DNA of 30,876 nucleotides, from positions 267-31,142 of the forward strand of contig JBBISO010000002.1 of assembly GCA_037441325.1 (NCBI GenBank). The letters are read 5' to 3'. A model generated the notes under the pieces. That model ran no database searches, was not told the origin of the DNA, and saw nothing but the letters and a program-made list of their open reading frames with translations. The stretch is from Acidobacteriota bacterium (lineage in GTDB: Bacteria > Acidobacteriota > UBA6911). Shown one piece after another: positions 3,642 through 24,271 of the stretch (positions are counted from its first letter, which is position 1; every line of letters begins with the position of its first letter). A program made the translations under genes and the position numbers.

Positions 3642-5078
3642 ATGAGCGAGACAGCAGCGCAAGCGCAGGCCGGCGCAAATGGTTCGAAATCGACAAGGGA
3701 GATTGTGGGAATTCTGAGCGCGATCGCCGCCGGCGGCATGGTCCTGCTCCTCCCAACGCCGGATGGGCTCTCGGCCACAGGCCACCGCCTGGCAGCCCTT
3801 TTTGTGGCGACCCTCATCCTCTGGTCCACGGAAGCCCTACCCATCGCAGTCACTTCCATCATGATCCTGGCGTTTCAGCCGATCCTCGGCATCAAGGCCA
3901 TCGGGCCGGCGATCGCAAGTTTCATGAGCCCCATATTTTTCTTTGTGCTCCTGATGTTTATTGTTGCCCTGGCATGGGTCAAGACGGGACTGGCCCGAAG
4001 ATTCGGGCTGTGGATGATATCCAAGGGAGGCACTGACACAAAGCGCGTGGTTGTGGCCTTCATGGCCGGCTCTGCCCTGATCTCAATGATCGTCTCGGAT
4101 GTGCCCTGCACCGCGATCTTCATGGCCCTGGCGCTGAGCATATTCAACAAGCTGAAACTGCAGCCCGGACGGTCAAATTTCGGCAGGGTTTTGATGCTGG
4201 GCATTCCCATTGCCGCTCTGATAGGGGGCATTGGCACGCCTGCCGGCAGCTCGATCAATTTGCTCGGGCTCCAGATGATCGAGGAAAACGGAGGCGCGCG
4301 CATCCCATTCGTTCACTGGATGGCCATCGGAGTTCCGATGGCCGTTGTTCTGCTCCCCATCTCGGCCTGGGTGCTGCTGAAGATCTTTCCGCCCGAGTTC
4401 GGGTCCATCGGGGATATGAGCGGCATACTAGAAGATCGGCGCCAGATGGGGCCGGTCACGGCCGATGAGTGGAAGGTCATCGCGATCATGGGCGCAATGG
4501 TTACCTTGTGGATCTTGAGCTCGTGGTTTCCTTTGCTCAGCGTATACACGGTAGCGCTTTGCGGCGCCTCCGTCATGTTTCTGCCCGGAATAAAACTCTT
4601 TTCGTGGAAAGAAGCGGAAAGCGCCATCAGTTGGAGCACCCTGATGCTGATCGGAGGCGTGACGTGTCTGGGCACGGCCTCAAGCAGCACGGGTCTGGCG
4701 AAATGGCTTGCGGATGCCGTATTGGGCGGCGTTCCCGGCTGGAGCCTGGTGACGGGTCTTGTCGTCATCAGCGCCTTCACCGTTGTCATCCATCTAATGC
4801 TGCCTATCGCGCCCATCATCAACGCGGTCATGATTCCGCCCATCATGGCCATGGGCGCCGCCGCGGGCGCAGAGGCGACGCTGTATGCGCTGCCGGTGAT
4901 CTTCACCGCTTCCTGCGCGTTCCTGCTGCCGCTGGATGCGGTGCCTCTGGTTACTTATGCGAAGGGCTATTATCGGTTCTTCGACATGTTCACCCCCGGC
5001 CTTATCATCAGTATCGTGTGGGTTTTCGTTATGGCCGCCGCCATGGTGCTGATCGGCCCCATGCTGGGGCTCCTTTAA
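3642..5078 (+). CDS. DASS/SLC13-family anion (di/tricarboxylate or sulfate-type) transporter
   Basis: About 12-14 hydrophobic segments. WSTEALPIAVT, SMIVSDVPCT (SNT-like hairpin motif), GGIGTPAGSSIN, and C-terminal FLLPLDAVP (FMLPVATPPN-like). Confidence 0.9.
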   Translation: MSETAAQAQAGANGSKSTREIVGILSAIAAGGMVLLLPTPDGLSATGHRLAALFVATLILWSTEALPIAVTSIMILAFQPILGIKAIGPAIASFMSPIFFFVLLMFIVALAWVKTGLARRFGLWMISKGGTDTKRVVVAFMAGSALISMIVSDVPCTAIFMALALSIFNKLKLQPGRSNFGRVLMLGIPIAALIGGIGTPAGSSINLLGLQMIEENGGARIPFVHWMAIGVPMAVVLLPISAWVLLKIFPPEFGSIGDMSGILEDRRQMGPVTADEWKVIAIMGAMVTLWILSSWFPLLSVYTVALCGASVMFLPGIKLFSWKEAESAISWSTLMLIGGVTCLGTASSSTGLAKWLADAVLGGVPGWSLVTGLVVISAFTVVIHLMLPIAPIINAVMIPPIMAMGAAAGAEATLYALPVIFTASCAFLLPLDAVPLVTYAKGYYRFFDMFTPGLIISIVWVFVMAAAMVLIGPMLGLL

Positions 5079-5269
5079 CCCGCATTTCTCACAAGGTTCT
5101 TACTGCGGCGGCGCATCCAGGCATGTGTACTGCATTTTGCTGCCCGTGGGGACGGCTCTCCAGCAGCCGTCCTGGGCGGGTCTGGAGACCCGCCCCACAT
5201 GTCGCGCGCCTTGTATCCACACCCGTCTGCGACGCCTCGCGACGAAACCTTTAGAGAAATGCGGGTTAA
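5075..5269. repeat. 195-bp MITE/REP-like element with perfect 16-bp terminal inverted repeats
   Basis: TTAACCCGCATTTCTC (5075-5090) and GAGAAATGCGGGTTAA (5254-5269). Internal palindrome GGGCGGGTCT-GG-AGACCCGCCC (5174-5195). Left end overlaps the TAA stop of the transporter. Confidence 0.85.
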
Positions 5270-8694: not shown

Positions 8695-9387
8695 ATGTCG
8701 GAGCCCGAATATCCTCACTATCTCAAGCACAGGCAACGGCTACGTGATCGTTTCCTCAAAACCGGCCTTTCAGGCTTTGCCGATTATGAGGTGGTGGAAC
8801 TGCTCCTTACACTTTGTATCCCCCGTAAGGATGTAAAGGAACGTGCGAAAGCGCTGCTGGCAGCATTTGGGACACTACGCGGCATTCTCGATGCACCAAT
8901 CTCCGAATTGAAGAATGTGGAGGGAATTGGAGAGGTGACACCCGTGGCGTTGCGTATCATCCGTGAAGCAGCAAATTTGTATTTACAGCAGAAAGCCGAA
9001 GGTTTGCCTTTTTTGGCTTCGCCTGAGGCTCTTGGATTTTTTTGGCGAAGCCGGCTCGGGAGTTTACCTAATGAAATCTTTGAAGTCGCCTATCTGGATT
9101 CCGCGTACCGGCTCATCCGGAATGGAATTGAAACTCTTGAGGAAGGCACCATTGATCGGGCTGCGGTTTACCCGCGGCGCGTAGTGGAGGCTGCTCTGCG
9201 CCGCGGCGCAGCTGGGCTTGTTGTCGCCCACAATCATCCTAATGGAGACGTGAGTCCATCGGAGCAAGACAAGATATTAACCAGAGCACTTGTGCTGGCT
9301 GCAACTTCTGTCCAGATTAAGATCGTTGATCACCTCATCGTTTCGGCAGATAAGGTATTTAGTTTTCGAGAAGCTGGGTTGCTGTGA
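8695..9387 (+). CDS. radC: RadC family protein (HhH plus JAB domain)
   Basis: HRQRLRDRF, DYEVVELLL, HhH VEGIGE, GTIDRAAVYPR, JAB motif HNHPNG...S..D, DHLIV. Confidence 0.93.
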   Translation: MSEPEYPHYLKHRQRLRDRFLKTGLSGFADYEVVELLLTLCIPRKDVKERAKALLAAFGTLRGILDAPISELKNVEGIGEVTPVALRIIREAANLYLQQKAEGLPFLASPEALGFFWRSRLGSLPNEIFEVAYLDSAYRLIRNGIETLEEGTIDRAAVYPRRVVEAALRRGAAGLVVAHNHPNGDVSPSEQDKILTRALVLAATSVQIKIVDHLIVSADKVFSFREAGLL

Positions 9388-11052
9388 TGGCTATTGCCCC
9401 ATAGATCTTGAAAGAATTTCCCGCCTTGAACGATGCACAGCGGGAAGTGGTAGCTCATCTGGATGGCCCGATGCTTGTAATTGCCGGTCCCGGTTCGGGC
9501 AAAACGTTCAGTCTCGTGTTGCGCGCTGTTAACCTGTTCCTCCTGGGCCGCTGCAAGCCTGCAGAGCTCATCCTTTGCACCTTTACCGAAAAGGCGGCAT
9601 ACGAGCTCCGCGATCGCATCACCGCCATGGCCCGTATGGTGCACTATCGAGAAGACCTTTCAGATCTGCGAGTGGGAACAATGCATGGCATCTGCAATCG
9701 CATCATCGCTCAGCACCGGCATCGCACGGCGCTCGGCAGCGGTTATGAAACGTTGGATGATCTCGGCCAGCTGCTTTTTATCTTTGATCATTTCGATGAG
9801 GTTTGCGGTCAGGATTCCGGGTTGCCCTACCTGGGCAGATGGCAAACCAAGTGGGGCGCAATTGAGGGATTGCGCGACTACTTCAACAAGATCACGGAAG
9901 AATTGGTTGATCCCGAGAGACTCGCGAACGACACTGATCCCTTCCTGCAGCAACTGGGACCCGCTTACATCAACTACCGCAATACGTTACTCCGAAACAA
10001 TCGCGTAGACTTCGCCCATCAGCAAAGCATCGTCCACGACCTTCTGCTCGACACGCATTTCCTGAGCACAATCGCTAACAACCGGATTCGACAGGATGCG
10101 CTTGCACTACGTCGCCTTTTCGCGCGCAGCAAAAATCCTCGCCCTTACCAGCGACGACAACCCCCGCGACCATTTCGCCCGCATCTGGCAAGGACTTCCC
10201 CAATGGCCCTATGTCCAGAAGGATTTGCTTGCTGCGCAGAAATTCGAGATCAAGGAGCGGATTCCCATCAAGCGGCGCTATAGCTTCACCGGTGATCTCA
10301 AGCTGTACGAGACCTGCCCGCGTCAATATGAGTTCTTCCGCGAATACGACTTCACGCCCTCCCGGTCGGCGGTCATCTTTTTCGGTTTGCTTGTTCACCA
10401 GACGATCGAGGAAATCCACCGGCATGTTATGGATGGCAAGCTCGAATCACTCGATGAAGCCGGTATTCGCGAGCTTTTTAACCGCACGTTCCATTTTCTA
10501 TCTTTGGCAGACGTCCGGCCTATCGGCCCGGCCGCCAGGGAATCAGCCTTTAAACAGGTAATGAATTATTTCAGCCAAAACCGGGCCGAGATGCAGCGTG
10601 TCATCCAGACTGAGGTGGATGTGTCGCTTGAAAAGGGTAGCTATATCCTTCATGGCAAGGTAGATCTGCTCATGGGCAGGGACGGCAAGCTGGAGATTCT
10701 CGATTTTAAGACCTCTGAGAAACCCTCAGCTTCACCTGAATTGCTTGCAGCTTACGAAGGGCAGCTTTGCACATGCGCCCACATCCTCGAAAATCGCTAT
10801 GGGAAGCGGCCTGAACGCTTATTGCTATACTGGACGGCCTAGCCTCGCAAGGAGGACGCCCTCATGGAATTCCCATACCGGCCGGAACTCGTAAAACAAG
10901 CCGGGGATAAATTCGATGCCGTCGTGGCAAAGATCCAAGCACGGGATTTTGCTATAGTGAAAAAGCCGGAGCGGAAAATCTGCAAGGAATGCGATTTGAG
11001 GAGCTTATGCCACATGGAAGGAATCGTTCCATCAGCGGAGATTTCCGCGTGA
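9387..11052 (+). pseudogene. UvrD/PcrA-like SF1 helicase with C-terminal PD-(D/E)XK (Cas4/RecB-like) nuclease; internally deleted, frameshifted, two in-frame TAG
   Basis: ATG 9387 overlaps the radC stop; TAG at 9402. LNDAQRE, Walker A AGPGSGKT, TFTEKAA and GTMHG are present. Motifs II (DEYQD) to V are absent after about 10050. Motif VI RLHYVAFSRA resumes in another frame, followed by CPRQY, GKVDLL, LDFKT, TAG at 10840, then C-terminal CKECDLRSLC. Confidence 0.88.
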
Positions 11053-11157
11053 TTTTCGGGGAGCAGCGAATCGCCGTCGCAATTGGATTGACGCAACCCG
11101 CGTGCGCGTGTGCGCTGCATCAAGGCAGGAAAAGGATGTAGCTTTGCAAACGGCATA

Positions 11158-11180
11158 CTCGGAAGCGCTATGCTTCCGAG
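11158..11180. repeat. Intergenic hairpin (9-bp perfect stem)
   Basis: CTCGGAAGC-GCTAT-GCTTCCGAG; no clear U-tract, role unknown. Confidence 0.5.
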
Positions 11181-11226
11181 CTCTTTCCGGGTGCACTGCC
11201 GAGCCGGAAACGGGAGTGACTGGACC

Positions 11227-11529
11227 ATGCCGAAAAAGGAAGATCTTATTATCACGGACTAGCTGGAAAACCTGATCTACGAGGTGCGCGGGCAAAAGAT
11301 CATGCTCGATGCCGATCCGGCTGCCGTCTATGGCGTAACGACCAAACGGCTAAATGAAGCGGTAAAACGCAACTCGCAACGCTTTCCGGCAGACTTTGTG
11401 TTTCGGCTTACCCCACGGGAATTTGCGGCTTTGAGGTCGCAATTTGCGACCTCAAACCGGCCGCAGATTGTGGCCGGTCCGGAAAGAAGCAAGGGCAATT
11501 ATCGCGTTCGCAGGTACGCAAGAGGGTGA
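11227..11529 (+). pseudogene. ORF6N-domain DNA-binding protein with in-frame TAG and probable internal deletion
   Basis: ATG 11227 gives MPKKEDLIITD*LENLIYEVRGQKIMLDAD...YGVTTKRLNEAVKRN..RFPADF.FRLT..E...LRSQFATS, the ORF6N signature. The usual PYAFTEHG segment that follows is missing. Confidence 0.82.
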
Positions 11530-11532
11530 ATC

Positions 11533-12687
11533 ATGGCAAAGATTGAGATTACCAAGACCGAGCTGATTTGGCCGGGCAAATATAACGAGGATGGATCGCG
11601 CAAAGAAGTGCCCCGCGTCAAGCTGCCCTTCCAAGTCATCGAAACCATCAACGAAAGCCGTGCAACCCGCGAAGCAAAAAAATCGGCTCAACCAACCCTG
11701 TTCGACGTCTGGGAAGGCAAGGAAGGCGACACCTTCGAGGAGGGCTGGAAAAACAAGCTCATCTGGGGCGACAACCTGCTGGTCATGTGCTCGCTGCTGG
11801 AAAAGTTCGCCGGCAAAATTGACCTCATATACATCGACCCGCCGTTTGCAACAGGAGCAGACTTTTTGTTTACCGCGGAGATCGGAGAACAAGAAATAGA
11901 AGCGGCCAAGGAACAGTCAATAATCGAGGAAAAGGTTTACCGCGACACTTGGGGCCAGGGTTTGGTGTCTTATTTAGCTATGATGTGCGATCGTCTTGTC
12001 CTAATCCGCGATCTGTTGGCCGAAACCGGCTGTGCATACATTCACGTGGATAATAGGATGGTGCATCCGCTGAAGTTCGTGATGGACGAGGTGTTTGGCA
12101 ACGAATCATTTCTAAACCATGTGATCTGGAGCTATCGTCGCTGGCCTTCGGTAGCCAGCAACTATCAGACGATGCATGATGACATCCTTTTTTACGTTAA
12201 GAATCCGAAGTCGAAGCGAGTATTCAATATCGACTATGAGCCTCCGTCTGAGAGTTACATCAAGCGGTTCAAAGGCAAGACGCAGGTTCTGGACCCAGAT
12301 ACAAAAACGCGCAAACTTGTGGTTGAGGAACCAACCAAGGGTCTTCCGATTCGCGATGTGTGGGACATCTCCATCGTGGCCGGTTTTAAGTCCGAGCGCA
12401 CTGGGTTTCCCACCCAAAAGCCCGAGGCCTTACTAGAGAGGGTCGTTAAAACATCCTCGAATGATGGGGACTTGGTTGCTGATTTTTTCTGTGGCTCTGG
12501 CACTAGCCTAGCGGTAGCAGAGAGGCTTGGTCGCCGATGGATAGGCTGCGATCTGTCGCGGTGGGCGATTCACGTCACCCGCAAGCGCCTACTGGAAATC
12601 GAACGCTGTAAGCCGTTCGAAGTGCTTAATCTCGGCAAATATGAGCGTAAGTACTGGCAAGGGATTACGTTCAGCGGCAAGGAGTGA
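11533..12687 (+). CDS. mod: Type III R-M Mod-like N6-adenine DNA methyltransferase; catalytic domain apparently intact, C-terminus truncated
   Basis: NKLIWGDNL, motif IV YIDPPF before motif I DFFCGSGT (beta class), FPTQKPEALLERVV, RRWIGCD. Confidence 0.88.
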   Translation: MAKIEITKTELIWPGKYNEDGSRKEVPRVKLPFQVIETINESRATREAKKSAQPTLFDVWEGKEGDTFEEGWKNKLIWGDNLLVMCSLLEKFAGKIDLIYIDPPFATGADFLFTAEIGEQEIEAAKEQSIIEEKVYRDTWGQGLVSYLAMMCDRLVLIRDLLAETGCAYIHVDNRMVHPLKFVMDEVFGNESFLNHVIWSYRRWPSVASNYQTMHDDILFYVKNPKSKRVFNIDYEPPSESYIKRFKGKTQVLDPDTKTRKLVVEEPTKGLPIRDVWDISIVAGFKSERTGFPTQKPEALLERVVKTSSNDGDLVADFFCGSGTSLAVAERLGRRWIGCDLSRWAIHVTRKRLLEIERCKPFEVLNLGKYERKYWQGITFSGKE

Positions 12688-13106
12688 AACTACTGCTGTT
12701 GAATATCCCGCGGGAAGTAATGGAACAGCAGGCCGTGGACAAGGGCGATATCAAGTTTTTTGAGGTGGCCCACCTGGAAGTGAAAATTAACAAGGAGAAA
12801 GGGCGCAAGGTCGCGGTGGAATTGAAGGATTTCGCTTTTCCGTATGCCGACCTGATTCCCGAGGAAGTACGCAGCAAAATCAAAAAGTGGTCCGACTACA
12901 TCGATTACCGGGCGGTGGATTGGGATTTTCAAAACGACACGTTCATGAACGGCTGGGTCGCTTACCGGACACGCAAGGAGCGCAAACTGGCATTGGAGTC
13001 CGACCAATACGTTTACCAAAAACCAGGCACATACACGATTATGGTCAAGGTGATTGACATTTTCGGCAACGATACCTCGCAGGCATTCGAAGTGGCAATG
13101 GGATGA
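12684..13106 (+). pseudogene. Detached C-terminal segment of the Mod protein
   Basis: (G)VKLLLLNIPREVMEQ...WSDYIDY.AVDWDF...YTIMVKVIDIFGNDT is a typical Mod C-terminus. It is joined out of frame to GITFSG at about 12680, consistent with an internal deletion. Confidence 0.75.
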
Positions 13107-13125
13107 TTTCGGCTTGGAGACAGGA

Positions 13126-13270
13126 ATGACGATCAGGATCGATCACCATACGTTGGAGCGCGCCGCCGAGCGGGGAACTGATCCCGGGGAAATCAGGGAT
13201 GTAATTGAGACCGGTATCCCGATCCCCGCGCGGGGAAACAGATTGGGCAAGGTCAAGGTTTATGCATTTG
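13126..13270 (+). pseudogene. DUF4258-like small protein, 5' remnant
   Basis: MTIRIDHHTLERAAERG...EIRDVIETG: the H...R..ER pattern of DUF4258/BrnT-like proteins. Breaks off at about 13270 into Res sequence. Confidence 0.6.
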
Positions 13271-14641
13271 GCCGAGAAGGAAGCGCTGGTTATTCACACC
13301 GACAAGGAAGGCGATGTGACCAAGGCGGATTTGGAGGAAGCACGCAAGGTTGCGCGCGACATTGACCTGCCGGCAAGCAAGGTAAATGCGATAGTGAGCG
13401 TCCTGATGCTGCGTGAGGGCTGGGACGTACGCAATGTCACCGTCGTGCTGGGTTTGCGTCCCTTCACCTCAAAGGCTCGAATTCTCCCGGAGCAAGGCGT
13501 CGGACGAGGCCTGCGCCTGATGCAGAGCATCAGCCCCGACCGGACTCAGACGCTTGAGGTTATGGGCACGCAGGCATTTGAGGATTTTGTGCGACAACTT
13601 GAAACTGAAGGCGTCGGCATCAAAACAACGAATATACCGCCCGCGCCTCCGGTGAAAATCGAGCCGGTGGCTGAGAACGCCAAATATGATATTGCCATCC
13701 CGATTACCAGGCCCGTCTATACCCATAATTACAGGAAGCTGTCGGAAATCCGTCCAGCTGACCTTGACGCAGTCTATGACCAGGCCGAGCTGGAAGAGAC
13801 TTATCGGATACGATTAAAAATGGATTTTGCCACTACTGATACAGAAGTTCACCGAGTGGATATTGAGGCCGGTCCTGCGCCGCTAACGCAGGACATGCTC
13901 GCTTCTATTACAAAGAAGACAATCGCGGCGGCAAATCTTCCCGGAGGATTTGCGGAACTGTTTCCCATTGTGCGCGAATACGTGGCCAAACGGTGCTTTG
14001 GCAGGAGAATCGATCTTGAGGACAAAAAGATTCGCGATTACTTGCGCGCTGTGCTGGTTCAAGAGGGCATCGCCAAATATCTGGCGCGCAAGATTGGCGA
14101 GCTTACCACGGAGAAGCGCGCCATCGAGTTTGAACGAAAGGATTACAGACTTTCACAAATAAAACCATTCACCTGGCGGCGCAATCTCCCGCTGCTGTCT
14201 TGCAGGAAGACGATTTTCAACCGTGTGGCCACGTTCAACGATTTCGAGAAAGAATTTGCCAAATTTCTGGAGCGGTGTCCCGATGTCCTGCGCTTCGCCT
14301 CCCTGGGCACAACCGAGCAGGAAAGCGGAGCGCAGTTCCGTGTGGATTACCTCAAGCCGAGCGGCGCCATTGGCTTCTACCACCCAGACTGGGTGGTTGC
14401 ACAAGAGACCGATGAGGGAGAGGCAAACTGGATCATTGAGACAAAGGGCCGGATTTGGGAAAGCACTGCTGCCAAGGACGCCGCCATTGAAGATTGGTGC
14501 AGGAAAGTTTCGGCTCAAACGAAGGTCGCTTGGCGATATAAAAGAATCAACCAGACGGTCTTTGAACGCGGTTCATTCGCAAGCTTCGGCAAGCTTCTTC
14601 AGGCACCGGAGTCGACACTCTATGGAAGATCCGGAGTATGA
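13262..14641 (+). pseudogene. res: Type III restriction endonuclease Res subunit, C-terminal half only
   Basis: LVIHTDK, VSVLMLREGWDVRNV (SF2 motif V), EQGVGRGLR (motif VI), C-terminal nuclease YHPDWVV...IIETKG. The N-terminal Walker A and DEAH motifs are absent. Confidence 0.85.
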
Positions 14642-14764
14642 AAATTCACAGGAAGCAGGATCGCTTGGAATGGATTTCATCCGCGTCCTTGGCCTGTTTT
14701 CTTAGTAAAAAACATAGCTATCACTAATTGATATAATGGCTTATCGTGGTCCGGCCCCTATTTA

Positions 14765-15035
14765 GTTTCTGTCGCCAAACTCTTGTTCCTACGCTCAGCT
14801 CCGAAGGAGCGAACAGAGGATAGCCCCGGGTGAGCAAAGCGAACCCGGGGCAGGATGTTTGATAATGTAAGAGCCCCGCAAGGGGCGCAAGATTTGGTAC
14901 GACAATGGCTTCTATCGCCCCTTCAGGGCTCCTTCCTTACAAATTCCTACCAGGGGTTCGCTGCGCTCACCCCCTGGCTATTCTCTGATCGCCCCTTGCG
15001 GGGCCTGGTCAAAAAACCGGTTTTGCGACAGAAAC
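14765..15035. mobile_element. 271-bp MITE: 16-bp TIRs, 6-bp TATTTA direct repeat, REP-like palindromic interior
   Basis: GTTTCTGTCGCCAAAC (14765-14780) versus the reverse complement of GTTTTGCGACAGAAAC (15020-15035): 15/16 match. TATTTA at 14759-14764 and 15036-15041. Internal GCCCC-GCAA-GGGGC and GGGTGAGC..AGCGAACCC modules are mirrored. Confidence 0.85.
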
Positions 15036-15038
15036 TAT

Positions 15039-17216
15039 TTACTCTTTCTCCGCTTTATACACCTTGCACAACAGCGCCGTATGCGGCCAGCCACCCACCT
15101 CAGGGTTGCAGTATTCGGGATCGATGGGGCAGAGCACATTGGAATTAGATTCCCAAATTCCGTGAAGCGACGGCTCTGCCGCGGGCCTGCCGGGAAACCA
15201 CCAGCCGTGTTGCGCTCTCAGCATCGCCGGATGGACTTCTTCCGTAAGACGCGCTCTCTGCTTTATTTTTCCCCGCCGTGTTTCGATCCAGATCCAGTCG
15301 CGGTCGGAAATGCTCAATTCCGCCGCTGTTTTTGGATGTATATCCGCGACCGGATCCGGCTGTTCCCGGATTGCTGATTGAATCTGGCGCAGCTCCGAAT
15401 GATAAAAGGGCATGAATTTGCCCGTCGCCATCAGGATGAGCGGATATTGCTCTGCAAGTTGGGGATTGCTCGCGGGGCTCTCCACCGGCTCGCGGTATAC
15501 CGGCAGAGGTTCCAGTCCGAACCGGGCGAAAATGCTCGCATGGATTTCCACCTTGCCCGAAGGGGTGCCGAAACCCTGGTTTTCATACTTCCTATATTTT
15601 ATTTCGGGCTTTAGTCCCCCCCGTTTCAGTGCTTGAGCGAAGGTGATGCCCAGCGGGGAAAGCCTGTAGTCGCAAACCTCCTCCACTGTTTTCCAGGGCC
15701 AGTATTCTTCCTGACCCAGCCTGGTCCCGAGTTCCCTCCAGAATTGGTAGTCATCCCGCCTTTCATAAAGCGGTTCCATGGCTTTTGGATAGGAAGGGAA
15801 ATCGTGCCGTTCAAGGGTGCATGCCGCAGGCAGCAGATAGTCGGCGAGCTCGGCGGTAGGCGTCGGGTAGTAATCCATGGCAACGGAAAGATCCAGGTTT
15901 GCGCTGCTAAGGGCTGTATATACGGTCCTGGTATCCGCCGCCTGGACCAATGTATTGTTGGACTGGCTGATGAACGCTTTGACCGGATAGGGTTTTCCGG
16001 TAATGATTGCCTGCCAGGTGTGCCGGGGGTGAGCGCAGCATGTCATTTCCGCAGTCGGCGGCCGAAAATAGGCCCCCGGTTTGTCGGAAGCTTCCCTGAT
16101 CATGTCCCATCCCGGAAAGCCGAAAAGCCCATACTCGCCCGAACCCAATTGTTTCTTTTTCTGTTGCGGAGAAATAGCATCATCAAGCTCCATTTGTTGA
16201 TTGGAAATTACGATGGCCTCATCGCCGGCCACGCCGAGGAGCTCCCCTCCGGGGACATCGAGATTACCCGTGATGGCGCGCAATATGCAGCGGGCGCGGA
16301 CGGCTTGCATGGCATTGACGCCCTGCAGGTCGATACCCAAGCCCCAGGTGATCGCTGAAGGTCTAGTCCGGGCATACATACCGGCCGCGGCAATAAGCTT
16401 GTCTTCCGGGACCCAGGATATGCGGGCAAGCTCTGCCAGAGAATACCGCTCCAGATGTTTTCTCAGTTGATCAAAACCTACGGTCCATTTTTCAACAAAC
16501 TCCCTGTCATACAAATTTTCTCCGATAATGATCTTGAGCCAGCCGAGCATGACGGCCACGTCCGTGCCCGGTCTTACCTGCAGCCAGAGATCCGCTAATT
16601 CTGCTTCCTTAGTGCGGCGCGGATCGACAACGATTATTGCGGCGCCCCGGGATTTGGCGGCGAGCAGCACGCGCCAATCGGGTATGAGGCGGGACTGGGA
16701 CGGCTGGAAGCCCCAAACCACAATACAGCGCGCGTTTCCGATATCCTGCCGGGCGAACGAGCCGTAGGTGCTCCACTCCACCGTGTGGGAGGGACACATG
16801 CAGATGTTGTTGGCTCCGATCATATTCGGACTTCCGAATAGGTTAAGAAACCGTTTCATTGCCCATCCGTAGGTTCGGTAGGTTCCGCGGGAAAAAGCGA
16901 GCGTCTCAGCCCCATGCCGGTCCCGCAAGCCTCCCAGTTTTTCTGCGATCTCATCCATTGCCTGTTCCCAGGTGATCTGCTTCCACTTCCCTTCTCCCCT
17001 TCGGCCGGCTCTTTTCAGCGGATAGTTCAAACGGTCAGGATTGTATAAATGTTCAAGGATGAGCTGGCCCCTCCTGCAGAGCGCCCCGCGGTTAAGCGGA
17101 TTCTCCGGGTCGCCCCGAACCCCGAGGGCGCGTCCGTTTTCAAACTGCACCAGCATGCCGCAGCGGATGTGACAGGGGCCGCACCAGCCTTTTCTGATTT
17201 CGATGTTGCTGCTCAT
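15039..17216 (-). CDS. Mo/W-bisPGD oxidoreductase (DMSO reductase superfamily), acetylene-hydratase-like clade
   Basis: [4Fe-4S] motif C12-x2-C15-x3-C19...GALC; DRLNYPLKR, GSPN...ICMC, VDPRRT, LADYLLPAACTLE, C-terminal molydop_binding domain (HPKTAAELSI, HGWW). No Tat signal. Confidence 0.92.
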   Translation of the reverse strand: MSSNIEIRKGWCGPCHIRCGMLVQFENGRALGVRGDPENPLNRGALCRRGQLILEHLYNPDRLNYPLKRAGRRGEGKWKQITWEQAMDEIAEKLGGLRDRHGAETLAFSRGTYRTYGWAMKRFLNLFGSPNMIGANNICMCPSHTVEWSTYGSFARQDIGNARCIVVWGFQPSQSRLIPDWRVLLAAKSRGAAIIVVDPRRTKEAELADLWLQVRPGTDVAVMLGWLKIIIGENLYDREFVEKWTVGFDQLRKHLERYSLAELARISWVPEDKLIAAAGMYARTRPSAITWGLGIDLQGVNAMQAVRARCILRAITGNLDVPGGELLGVAGDEAIVISNQQMELDDAISPQQKKKQLGSGEYGLFGFPGWDMIREASDKPGAYFRPPTAEMTCCAHPRHTWQAIITGKPYPVKAFISQSNNTLVQAADTRTVYTALSSANLDLSVAMDYYPTPTAELADYLLPAACTLERHDFPSYPKAMEPLYERRDDYQFWRELGTRLGQEEYWPWKTVEEVCDYRLSPLGITFAQALKRGGLKPEIKYRKYENQGFGTPSGKVEIHASIFARFGLEPLPVYREPVESPASNPQLAEQYPLILMATGKFMPFYHSELRQIQSAIREQPDPVADIHPKTAAELSISDRDWIWIETRRGKIKQRARLTEEVHPAMLRAQHGWWFPGRPAAEPSLHGIWESNSNVLCPIDPEYCNPEVGGWPHTALLCKVYKAEKE

Positions 17217-23285: not shown

Positions 23286-23697
23286 GGGCGGCGTGGAGGG
23301 CACTCTTGCTTCCGGATGCAGCACCGCCTTTTGCCGTATTTGTCTTGAAAGCAGAAATGCCGAACCGCCGGGCTTTCGCGTGGCGGCGGCGCATGTGGGC
23401 GGTTTCAGTCCCGAATCTTGTCCGGAGGAGAATTGGGCCATGCGTCCCATCCTTGTCATAGCCGTTGTTGTTTCTTTTGTCCTCTTCAAATTTGGATTGA
23501 TCTTCGCGACCCGGCAAACGTATTCTCTTATTTCAAATTGAAAACCTTTTTTCAGGATGGGGGCAGCATGCCCATGTTTTCAATTCCGATGGAGTCGTGG
23601 CAAAGAGTGCCAGGCTCATTTTACTCATGAAGCATTTACAATTGTTGCCGGAATTTTTCTTAAGCTGGTACAACCAATCGCGTTACAGGAGGTTTCA

Positions 23698-24102
23698 ATG
23701 AATACTGCATTCGAGTTTTTAAAGGCCAATCCCGTTTTTCACCTTGCGACCGTTGATGGTGACAAGGCCAGGGTTCGTCCCTTTGGTTTTACGATGAAAA
23801 GGAATAATGCCCTTTACATGTGCACGAACAAAACAAAGGAAGTATTCAAACAGCTGGTCAAAAATCCCAATATTGAAATTTCCGCCATGGGCACCGAGGG
23901 AACTTGGCTGCGAGTCCGGGGCAAGGTTGCGGCAGACGACAGCCGCGAGGCGAAGGCTCAGGCATTTGCGGAAGCTTCCCAGCTTCTGCAGATCTATCCC
24001 AAAGGGGCGGACGACGAAACCTTTGTAACCTTATATTTTACTGAGGCGCAGGCGACCTTGTATTCGTTTGGCAAGCCTCCGAAAAGCCTGCCTTTGCTTT
24101 AA
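23698..24102 (+). CDS. Pyridoxamine 5'-phosphate oxidase-like (NimC/NimA-type) FMN-binding protein
   Basis: FHLATVDGDKARVRPFG, LYMCTNKTKEVFKQL..NP.IEI, WLRVRG. SD AGGAGG precedes ATG 23698. Confidence 0.9.
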   Translation: MNTAFEFLKANPVFHLATVDGDKARVRPFGFTMKRNNALYMCTNKTKEVFKQLVKNPNIEISAMGTEGTWLRVRGKVAADDSREAKAQAFAEASQLLQIYPKGADDETFVTLYFTEAQATLYSFGKPPKSLPLL

Positions 24103-24271
24103 CCTGCATTTATCGCAAGGTTTCCACTGCGGCGGCTCATCCGGGCATGTCCACTGTGTTGGGTTCCCATGTGGGGTTGCGCTTGGAGACCCGCCCGCGC
24201 ATGTCGCGCATCTTGTATTCATGCCCGTCTGCGCCGCCTCGCCGCCAACCCTTGTGAAAAATGCGGGCTGA
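24099..24271. repeat. Copy of the CCYGCATTT miniature element
   Basis: TTAA-CCTGCATTTATCGCAAGG on the stop codon; ends CCTTGTGAAAAATGCGGG-CTGA. Interior matches copy 1 (ACTGCGGCGGC.CATCC.GGCATGT, GGAGACCCGCCC, CTTGTAT..A..CCCGTCTGCG). Confidence 0.85.

Follow-up and report, generated by a model that had tools for sequence, protein, structure and literature searches.

What is the 271-bp palindromic, gene-less element that lies directly behind the stop codon of a molybdopterin oxidoreductase gene in an Acidobacteriota genome, what moves it, and where does its interior come from? The element occupies positions 14765-15035 of a 30,876-nt stretch of contig JBBISO010000002.1, and we refer to this whole stretch as the window. 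From the evidence set out below, we conclude that the element is very probably a miniature inverted-repeat transposable element (MITE) moved by a DDE transposase of an ISNCY/IS5-like insertion sequence (IS), and that its interior is a hairpin doublet derived from a different kind of mobile element, one that encodes a Y1 transposase.

Anatomy of the element and its family

The left terminal inverted repeat (TIR) of the element, GTTTCTGTCGCCAAAC, and the reverse complement of its right end, GTTTCTGTCGCAAAAC, are identical at 15 of 16 bases, and TATTTA is directly repeated on either side, exactly as a preliminary description of the locus had read them base for base. A repeat search reported the terminal pair as 18 nt and 94% complementary, with the adjoining TA included; at 16 nt the TIR has the length of at least 10-15 bp that is looked for in a MITE. 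The preliminary description had also called the whole element an imperfect inverted repeat and had named three mirrored modules, and all three were recovered, as I1 (14828-14855 and 14945-14972, 82%), I2 (14804-14830 and 14971-14997, 81%), and I5 (14873-14887 and 14990-15004, 100%). When the element is compared with its own reverse complement, 70.7% of 290 columns match and the match covers the full element length. The element contains two hairpin modules in inverted orientation, the arrangement that characterizes a REPIN or REPtron. When 283 nt were folded as single-stranded DNA, the predicted energy was -73.9 kcal/mol, compared to a mean of -40.1 for shuffled sequences (z = -8.5), and 0 of 200 shuffles equalled it. 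The only open reading frame (ORF) of at least 60 aa that overlaps the element (14855..15148, plus strand) extends beyond it, and there is no transposase gene inside.

The source assembly, G000, is a metagenome-assembled genome (MAG) of 288 contigs and 2.76 Mb that is 87% complete. The 12-mer end motif AGTTTCTGTCGC, with at most one mismatch, has 120 matches in this assembly and 20 in a reversed-sequence control. Because 41 of the 120 TIR termini run off their contig within 120 nt, the family breaks the assembly. Automatic TIR pairing gave 45 pairs, and removal of nine that were chance pairs or nested duplicates left 36 complete copies; many copies in different contexts, as looked for in a MITE, are therefore present. 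The genome-wide BLASTn that the preliminary description had proposed bears this out, since it found a full copy that is 97.5% identical on contig C200 and, where contig C206 ends, a partial copy of 92% identity. About ten 267-bp elements share the right half of the window element at 79-86%, and overall the left interior of the window element occurs 3 times in the assembly and the right interior 13 times.

Sorted by interior, 26 of the 36 copies group together (160-312 bp), nine others, among them the window copy, make up a second cluster (267-271 bp), and one 137-bp copy stands alone, so that at least three unrelated interiors share this TIR. All nine members of the 267-271-bp cluster are palindromic over their full length, with self-reverse-complement matches of 175-286 nt, compared to only 10-90 nt in the other 27 copies. 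The element had also been described as recently transposed. The perfect flanking repeat and the one 97.5% identical copy point that way, and on these two observations the window copy may be recent.

Flanking repeats and a partner insertion sequence

The flanks of the 36 copies read T-A-N-N-T-A towards the element on both sides. The two flanking 6-mers are identical in 13 copies, their inner four bases in 20, and their inner two in 23; when the flanks were randomly re-paired, the corresponding means were 2.6, 4.7, and 6.5, and 0 of 2000 shuffles reached the observed counts. Copies without flanking direct repeats had been named beforehand as the outcome that would speak against transposition, and for the family as a whole the repeats are significant. 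Seventeen copies have a non-palindromic NN in the left flank, and this NN is repeated directly in nine and inverted in one, which excludes the possibility that the 6-mer is a mere part of the inverted repeat. The same comparison rules out a duplication of TA only, in the style of IS630/mariner, since the variable NN would not then be direct.

Among 61 pairs of flanks (the 36 above and 25 from other genomes), 22 have a perfect 6-bp repeat, one has a perfect 7-bp repeat (TAGTCTA), and 13 have a single mismatch. In the 267-271-bp subfamily, the 6-bp repeat is perfect in seven of nine copies. The flanking duplication of 2-10 bp that is looked for in a MITE is thus seen both at the window copy (TATTTA) and, as a perfect repeat, in 23 of the 61 pairs family-wide. 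Where two elements are adjacent (contigs C3 and C198, and also a loose end in contig alignments), exactly one 6-mer separates them, as would be expected if the duplication regenerates the target.

The TAA stop codon of the oxidoreductase gene lies inside the right TATTTA, and the preliminary description had stated that the right repeat supplies this stop. The location holds, but the functional claim that insertion supplied the stop does not; because any duplication model gives a pre-insertion TAAATA on the gene strand, the stop was preserved and not created by the insertion. A TANNTA target contains TAA or TAG in both orientations. The 6-mer next to a family terminus holds the stop codon of an ORF of at least 100 codons at 10 of 166 termini, compared to 152 of 4848 (3.1%) of all TANNTA sites, which is a weak enrichment of insertions at stop codons, given that the 166 termini include chance matches and the TANNTA control includes coding sites. 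At one place in the source assembly (contig C264, 1144-1422), a 267-bp copy lies between convergent ORFs of 133 and 262 codons whose stops are in the left and right copies of TAGTTA; before the insertion, one shared 6-mer would have held the stops of both genes.

The 16-mer TIR of the window element is identical to the ends of ISs of about 2.0-2.2 kb. An exact scan for AGTTTCTGTCGCGAAA, with one genome per species, found at least 132 stretches, of which 80 loci were examined. In these 80 loci, AGTTTCTGTCGCGAAA forms inverted pairs 1.8-2.2 kb apart on at least nine contigs, from Acidobacteriota, Alpha- and Gammaproteobacteria, and others, and at least 17 further short inverted pairs. The long elements each have one long ORF. 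Two of these ORFs, of 557 and 562 aa, score 422 and 403 bits on the NCBIfam profile NF033593 'ISNCY family transposase' (cut-off 325), with weaker matches to IS5 and IS1182 profiles. Pfam gave no match to either ORF at 1e-3, and the precomputed Pfam annotation of homologues names PF01609 and PF05598. The transposase with these ends, for which the preliminary description had proposed a search, belongs to an ISNCY/IS5-like IS, found on the nine contigs and also within the genus of the window. There, a 2043-bp copy in genome G005 has this TIR, is flanked by TAGTTA and TAATTA, and encodes an intact transposase of 473 aa, whose identity to the 557- and 562-aa ORFs is 62-66%. G005 is the only genome of this genus in which the IS was found. 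ISfinder gives repeats of 6-7 bp for one ISNCY subgroup.

Homologous transposases are abundant in metagenomes: when 8000 candidates were scored, 6372 clusters reached E <= 1e-30. Contigs of about 2-2.5 kb hold most of them, and the name given is 'IS5 family' at JGI and 'ISNCY family' at NCBI. The nearest annotated relatives on plasmids are ISRle10 and ISRm17, at about 34% identity. Proteins with PF01609 and PF13358 in the source assembly were considered as the partner transposase and rejected, as no matching TIRs are near them.

The coding layout differs between copies of the IS. In G005 (locus L159, 864-2647), the transposase ORF of 473 aa is preceded by a separate ORF of 121 aa, and the two have 4 nt in common. 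At loci L078 (220-1893) and L088 (384-2072), a single ORF of 557 or 562 aa consists of the transposase and an N-terminal extension of about 85 residues, and BLASTP (E <= 1e-3) gave no match between this extension and the upstream ORF of G005. Alternative starts or a programmed frameshift are possible explanations.

Origin of the interior and rival explanations

The hairpin modules of the interior belong with RF01687, the Acido-Lenti-1 family of Rfam. Six sister copies in the source assembly score 50 bits on this model, and 24 of 30 genomes of the genus have matches above threshold, with up to 127 in one genome. In genome G006, where the TIR is abundant (143 termini, compared to 6 in the control), most of the RF01687 matches, among those listed, lie just inside a TIR. 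The TIR does not exceed background in G012 and G015, yet these genomes have 36 and 109 RF01687 matches, with the modules occurring as singlets and as doublets without a TIR. Thus, the modules also exist independently of these ends.

Y1 transposase genes are present in 24 of the 30 genomes. At seven of 16 Y1 loci in the genus, RF01687 matches (E <= 0.01) lie beside the gene, and at three of the Y1 loci there are above-threshold matches on both sides, facing outward as they do in the window element. An eighth locus, in G012, has a BLAST match to the window element on both sides of the gene, which brings the count to eight of 16. The 148-aa ORF at this locus matches NF033573 'IS200/IS605 family' with 55.8 bits (cut-off 55), and it carries Y---Q--HH (SYIARQKEHH), which is given as the signature of TnpA-Y1 subclass 1.2 in the sections of Quentin et al. 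(2018; PMC6006769) available to us. Both halves of the window interior align hairpin for hairpin with the two flanks of the G012 gene, with a mean column identity of 70% over 131 columns. We therefore infer that the window interior is the gene-less end pair of such a Y1 element, in which about 100 nt stand in place of a 447-nt Y1 gene; the central part of the window element (14863..14939) is at the position that the gene has in its gene-bearing relative. The preliminary description had spoken of a REP-like doublet captured between IS-type ends, and this was largely right, as the interior is foreign to the IS and matches the flanks of Y1 genes. The capture itself is the probable course of events, in that the doublet would have been acquired and would not have arisen in place.

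Could the element instead be an ordinary internal-deletion derivative of the 2.1-kb IS, its interior being degraded IS sequence? Internal deletion of an IS is the textbook origin of many MITEs, and the TIRs are shared exactly with the IS. We consider this origin most improbable here, because the sequence common to MITE and IS is limited to about 20-25 bases at the ends: 34 of the 36 copies, when queried against seven full-length ISs, gave a match, but the longest was 19-28 nt and nearly always at the extreme ends. The RF01687 motif is also absent from all nine full-length IS loci, and the interior aligns with the flanks of Y1 genes instead. That same alignment, to both gene flanks, would be expected if a Y1 single-strand transposase (IS200-like/RAYT-like) had moved a REPIN/REPtron doublet whose outermost part we see as the outer repeats, and so would the modules beside Y1 genes at the seven loci and, by BLAST, the eighth, and the doublets and singlets without this TIR in G012 and G015. 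However, HUH single-strand transposition (IS200/IS605) is not expected to leave flanking direct repeats, and those found here are significant. In addition, the same TIR bounds two other, non-palindromic interiors and a DDE transposase gene, and the source assembly contains no Y1 gene, all of which makes movement by the Y1 route unlikely. A further possibility is that the repeats are kept by selection on RNA structure, so that the element would be a small RNA of the Acido-Lenti-1 family, or would stabilise or terminate the oxidoreductase mRNA at its 3' end. The sub-threshold RF01687 match at 14797-14850, the strong predicted fold, the position directly behind a stop codon, and the excess of stop-bearing flanks described above are all consistent with such a role. 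On the other hand, the element has TIRs and flanking repeats, its dozens of copies lie in contexts that are unrelated, and it has a partner that encodes a transposase, all of which indicates mobility at the DNA level. A consensus search of 14500-15300 found no sigma-70-like promoter or intrinsic terminator, and the window copy is under the Rfam threshold with one module damaged by an extra base. We therefore regard a functional RNA as highly unlikely.

Several results nevertheless weigh against a MITE of ISNCY/IS5-like parentage with a Y1-derived interior. No ISNCY-type transposase was found in the source assembly, where tblastn with the G005 transposase gave a best E of 0.85; plausibly, this is because such ISs typically assemble as lone contigs of about 2 kb and the MAG is 87% complete. 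A profile search for Y1_Tnp in the source assembly gave 0 matches, and in the 30 genomes the presence of a Y1 gene does not track the Acido-Lenti-1 counts. The window copy itself scores 28.4 bits on RF01687, for which the gathering score is 37, and no match to the right module is seen at E up to 1, probably because of one extra base near 14970. Of the 61 flank pairs, 25 have no repeat at or within one mismatch. Four pairs (C1-11323, C1-25987, C88, and L038) deviate from the consensus symmetrically and in a complementary manner (e.g., CAATTA / TAATTG), and these fit a 4-bp duplication (ANNT), with the terminal A...T as part of the element, better than a 6-bp one. The 6-bp target duplication of the preliminary description is thus visible as a 6-bp repeat, but its length as a duplication is put in doubt by these four pairs; the 4-bp and 6-bp models are inseparable elsewhere because consensus sites, even empty ones, predict alike. 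Finally, searches for an empty site gave nothing. Three oxidoreductase orthologues (about 80% amino acid identity) differ in their C-termini and downstream DNA and are too diverged, no joint without the element was found in Logan contigs of four runs (of which X2-X4 seem to be a single data set deposited in triplicate), and metagenome contigs contained 0 exact matches to the left flank and 0 to the right. The movement of the window copy is therefore not directly shown.

If the element is a MITE moved by an ISNCY/IS5-like transposase, the following course would account for what is observed. An IS5-like DDE transposase (NCBI 'ISNCY family') would act in trans on 16-17-bp ends, (A)GTTTCTGTCGCGAAA, and insert them into TANNTA-type sites by a staggered cut, leaving a direct repeat of 6 bp and sometimes 7 bp. 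That this particular transposase acts on these ends is suggested by the identity of the TIRs. The hairpin doublet would travel as cargo, being the two three-hairpin ends, without the gene, of an IS200-like Y1 (HUH) element of REPIN/REPtron type, and it is because of this doublet that the element is palindromic over its whole length. In the window, insertion would have taken place at the TAAATA with which the oxidoreductase gene closes, and the duplication would have kept the stop. We lean somewhat towards the wider view that the element is a two-layer hitch-hiker, a Y1 doublet inside the ends of an unrelated DDE IS that could be moved by two enzymes of different mechanism, and that Acido-Lenti-1, at least in this genus, is a mobile DNA repeat and not an RNA gene.

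Some further observations concern the modules. In G015 and G043 (loci L188, 1291-1884, and L196, 1364-1840), tandem arrays of four Acido-Lenti-1-like modules lie downstream of Y1 genes, with spacings of 183 nt and 143 nt, in a REPtron-like arrangement. A TIR-like word, (A/C)TTTCT(G/A/T)TCGCCCC, stands beside the innermost hairpin of the Y1-element flank at locus L191 (1203-1216) and beside that of the MITE centre, both in the window (14910-14923) and in the 267-bp copies. In G012 it shares 10 of 11 bases with the TIR core of the MITE, and it may be a chance resemblance or a hint of how the DDE ends were joined to this cargo. At locus L008 of G015, positions 879-1344 have a strict 21-nt periodicity over 15 registers and draw spurious matches to microRNA families of Rfam; this is probably a heptad-repeat coding region.

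Surroundings of the element and comparison with known systems

The features of the window are collected in the table below.

Table. Positions in the window of the element, its parts, and neighbouring features
Feature	Position	Strand	Remarks
Left flanking direct repeat TATTTA	14759..14764	.	Target-site duplication; family consensus TANNTA
Left TIR GTTTCTGTCGCCAAAC	14765..14780	+	Preceding A at 14764 may belong to the TIR
Left hairpin module, Acido-Lenti-1-like, two hairpins and linker	14797..14850	-	Reads outward to left TIR; Rfam RF01687 28.4 bits, E 5e-4
Central part, innermost hairpin pair	14863..14939	.	GCCCCGCAAGGGGC at 14873-14886 and diverged mirror at ~14915-14930; inverted repeats I4 and I6
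Right hairpin module, mirror of left	14945..15004	+	Reads outward to right TIR; basis I1, I2, I5; one extra base near 14970 compared with most other copies (contig alignments)
Right TIR, reverse complement GTTTCTGTCGCAAAAC	15020..15035	-	Sequence reading and repeat search
Right flanking direct repeat TATTTA	15036..15041	.	15039-15041 is the TAA stop of the minus-strand gene
Molybdopterin oxidoreductase gene, 725 aa	15039..17216	-	Pfam Molybdopterin, Molydop_binding, Molybdop_Fe4S4; context, outside the element
CCYGCATTT family copies	5075-5269, 24099-24271; also 20208, 26869		Separate repeat family

As judged from its letters, the 3' untranslated region of the oxidoreductase transcript would now enter a long hairpin, and any effect of the element on the neighbouring gene or its transcript is a matter of speculation. 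The preliminary description had also taken the element as the right border of a defence island; in the three closest relatives, with which the locus was compared on this point, no synteny was found on either side of the oxidoreductase gene. To the left of the element (window 8695-14705, Pfam) are RadC (8695-9387) and an N6/N4 DNA methylase (11533-12687), and ORFs that overlap, with the N-terminal domain of a UvrD helicase (9408-10283) and a PD-(D/E)XK nuclease domain (10096-10842), look as if one gene had been split or frameshifted. Pfam has no match to ORFs of 140, 478, and 160 aa in this region. A defence-type context is plausible here.

The element had been set apart from a CCYGCATTT repeat family, and this distinction is upheld by the other ends and the TTAA flanks of that family. 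It is a separate MITE-like repeat with inverted ends CCCGCATTTCTCACAAGGTT... and ...GAGAAATGCGGG about 165-190 bp apart, with TTAA on both sides of its first copy in the window and on the left side of the second. In each case the copy starts immediately behind a stop codon (ORFs 3642..5078 and 23557..24102). Some members of the TIR family have CCYGCATTT elements as their insertion sites, as seen from the flank 'tctcacaaggtttcg' on contigs C196 and C246.

Genome G018 has its own homogeneous family of about 285 bp, palindromic in all ten copies examined (L162-L171, at about 215-500 of the oriented locus). Its ends are AGGCTGTCTCAAAACTCGC, it has CTNNAG direct repeats (CTTCAG/CTGAAG), and its two Acido-Lenti-1 modules face inward, opposite to those of the window element. 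Members of this family frequently interrupt a REP-like hairpin, GGGTCGGGGCT...AGCCCCGACCC, at its loop. As the same modules are found here between different ends, such captures seem to have happened more than once.

Classical bacterial MITEs include the Correia/NEMIS elements of Neisseria and RUP of Streptococcus pneumoniae. Compared with bacterial MITEs as defined in the introduction of PMC11602168, the window element is alike in being small and non-coding, with TIRs and a short flanking duplication, and its family is alike in having many copies that are mostly intergenic and that depend on a transposase encoded elsewhere. TIRs, a flanking duplication, no transposase, further copies, and an autonomous partner were each looked for and found, and by these criteria the element is a MITE. 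It differs in that its interior is not derived from the IS but consists of the two ends of another mobile element, one that works by a different mechanism, and in that its cognate IS, which targets TANNTA, belongs to the little-studied ISNCY/IS5-like type. Compared with ISNCY elements themselves (NF033593), the partner elements of 2.0-2.2 kb have a transposase above the cut-off and the window element has none. ISRle10 carries TAGTCTA on both sides, matching the 7-bp form in this family, and its TIR (GTGCCCGTCC...) differs from that of the window element. The literature on ISDol1, ISRm17, and ISRle10 that we found gives no repeat lengths or ends.

With REPINs and REPtrons, which involve RAYT or TnpA-Y1 proteins, the window element shares the inverted two-hairpin modules, their position beside a Y1 gene in relatives, and the tens to more than 100 matches per genome, as far as these systems are described in the available sections of PMC6006769. 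It differs from what is described there in that DDE-type TIRs, with duplications on their outer sides, surround the doublet, and subclass 1.2 of TnpA-Y1, whose signature is present in G012, is described in the same sections as generally lacking such terminal structures. Our literature search found no published link between Acido-Lenti-1 and MITEs or Y1 transposons, and the combination of an ISNCY/IS5-like partner with a REPIN/REPtron-like cargo was not found in print. Compared with RF01687 as presented in the available part of Weinberg et al. (2010; PMC2864571), the order of hairpin, linker, and hairpin is the same and the sister copies match well; the motif in the window differs in its low score, in being part of a mobile DNA repeat, and in having no promoter or terminator consensus nearby. 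Acido-Lenti-1, an abundant orphan family of Rfam, thereby gains a concrete and testable identity. This bears on the annotation of intergenic 'structured RNAs' in Acidobacteriota-type genomes, and it suggests that the hairpin repeat of one type of transposon can be recruited as cargo by another.

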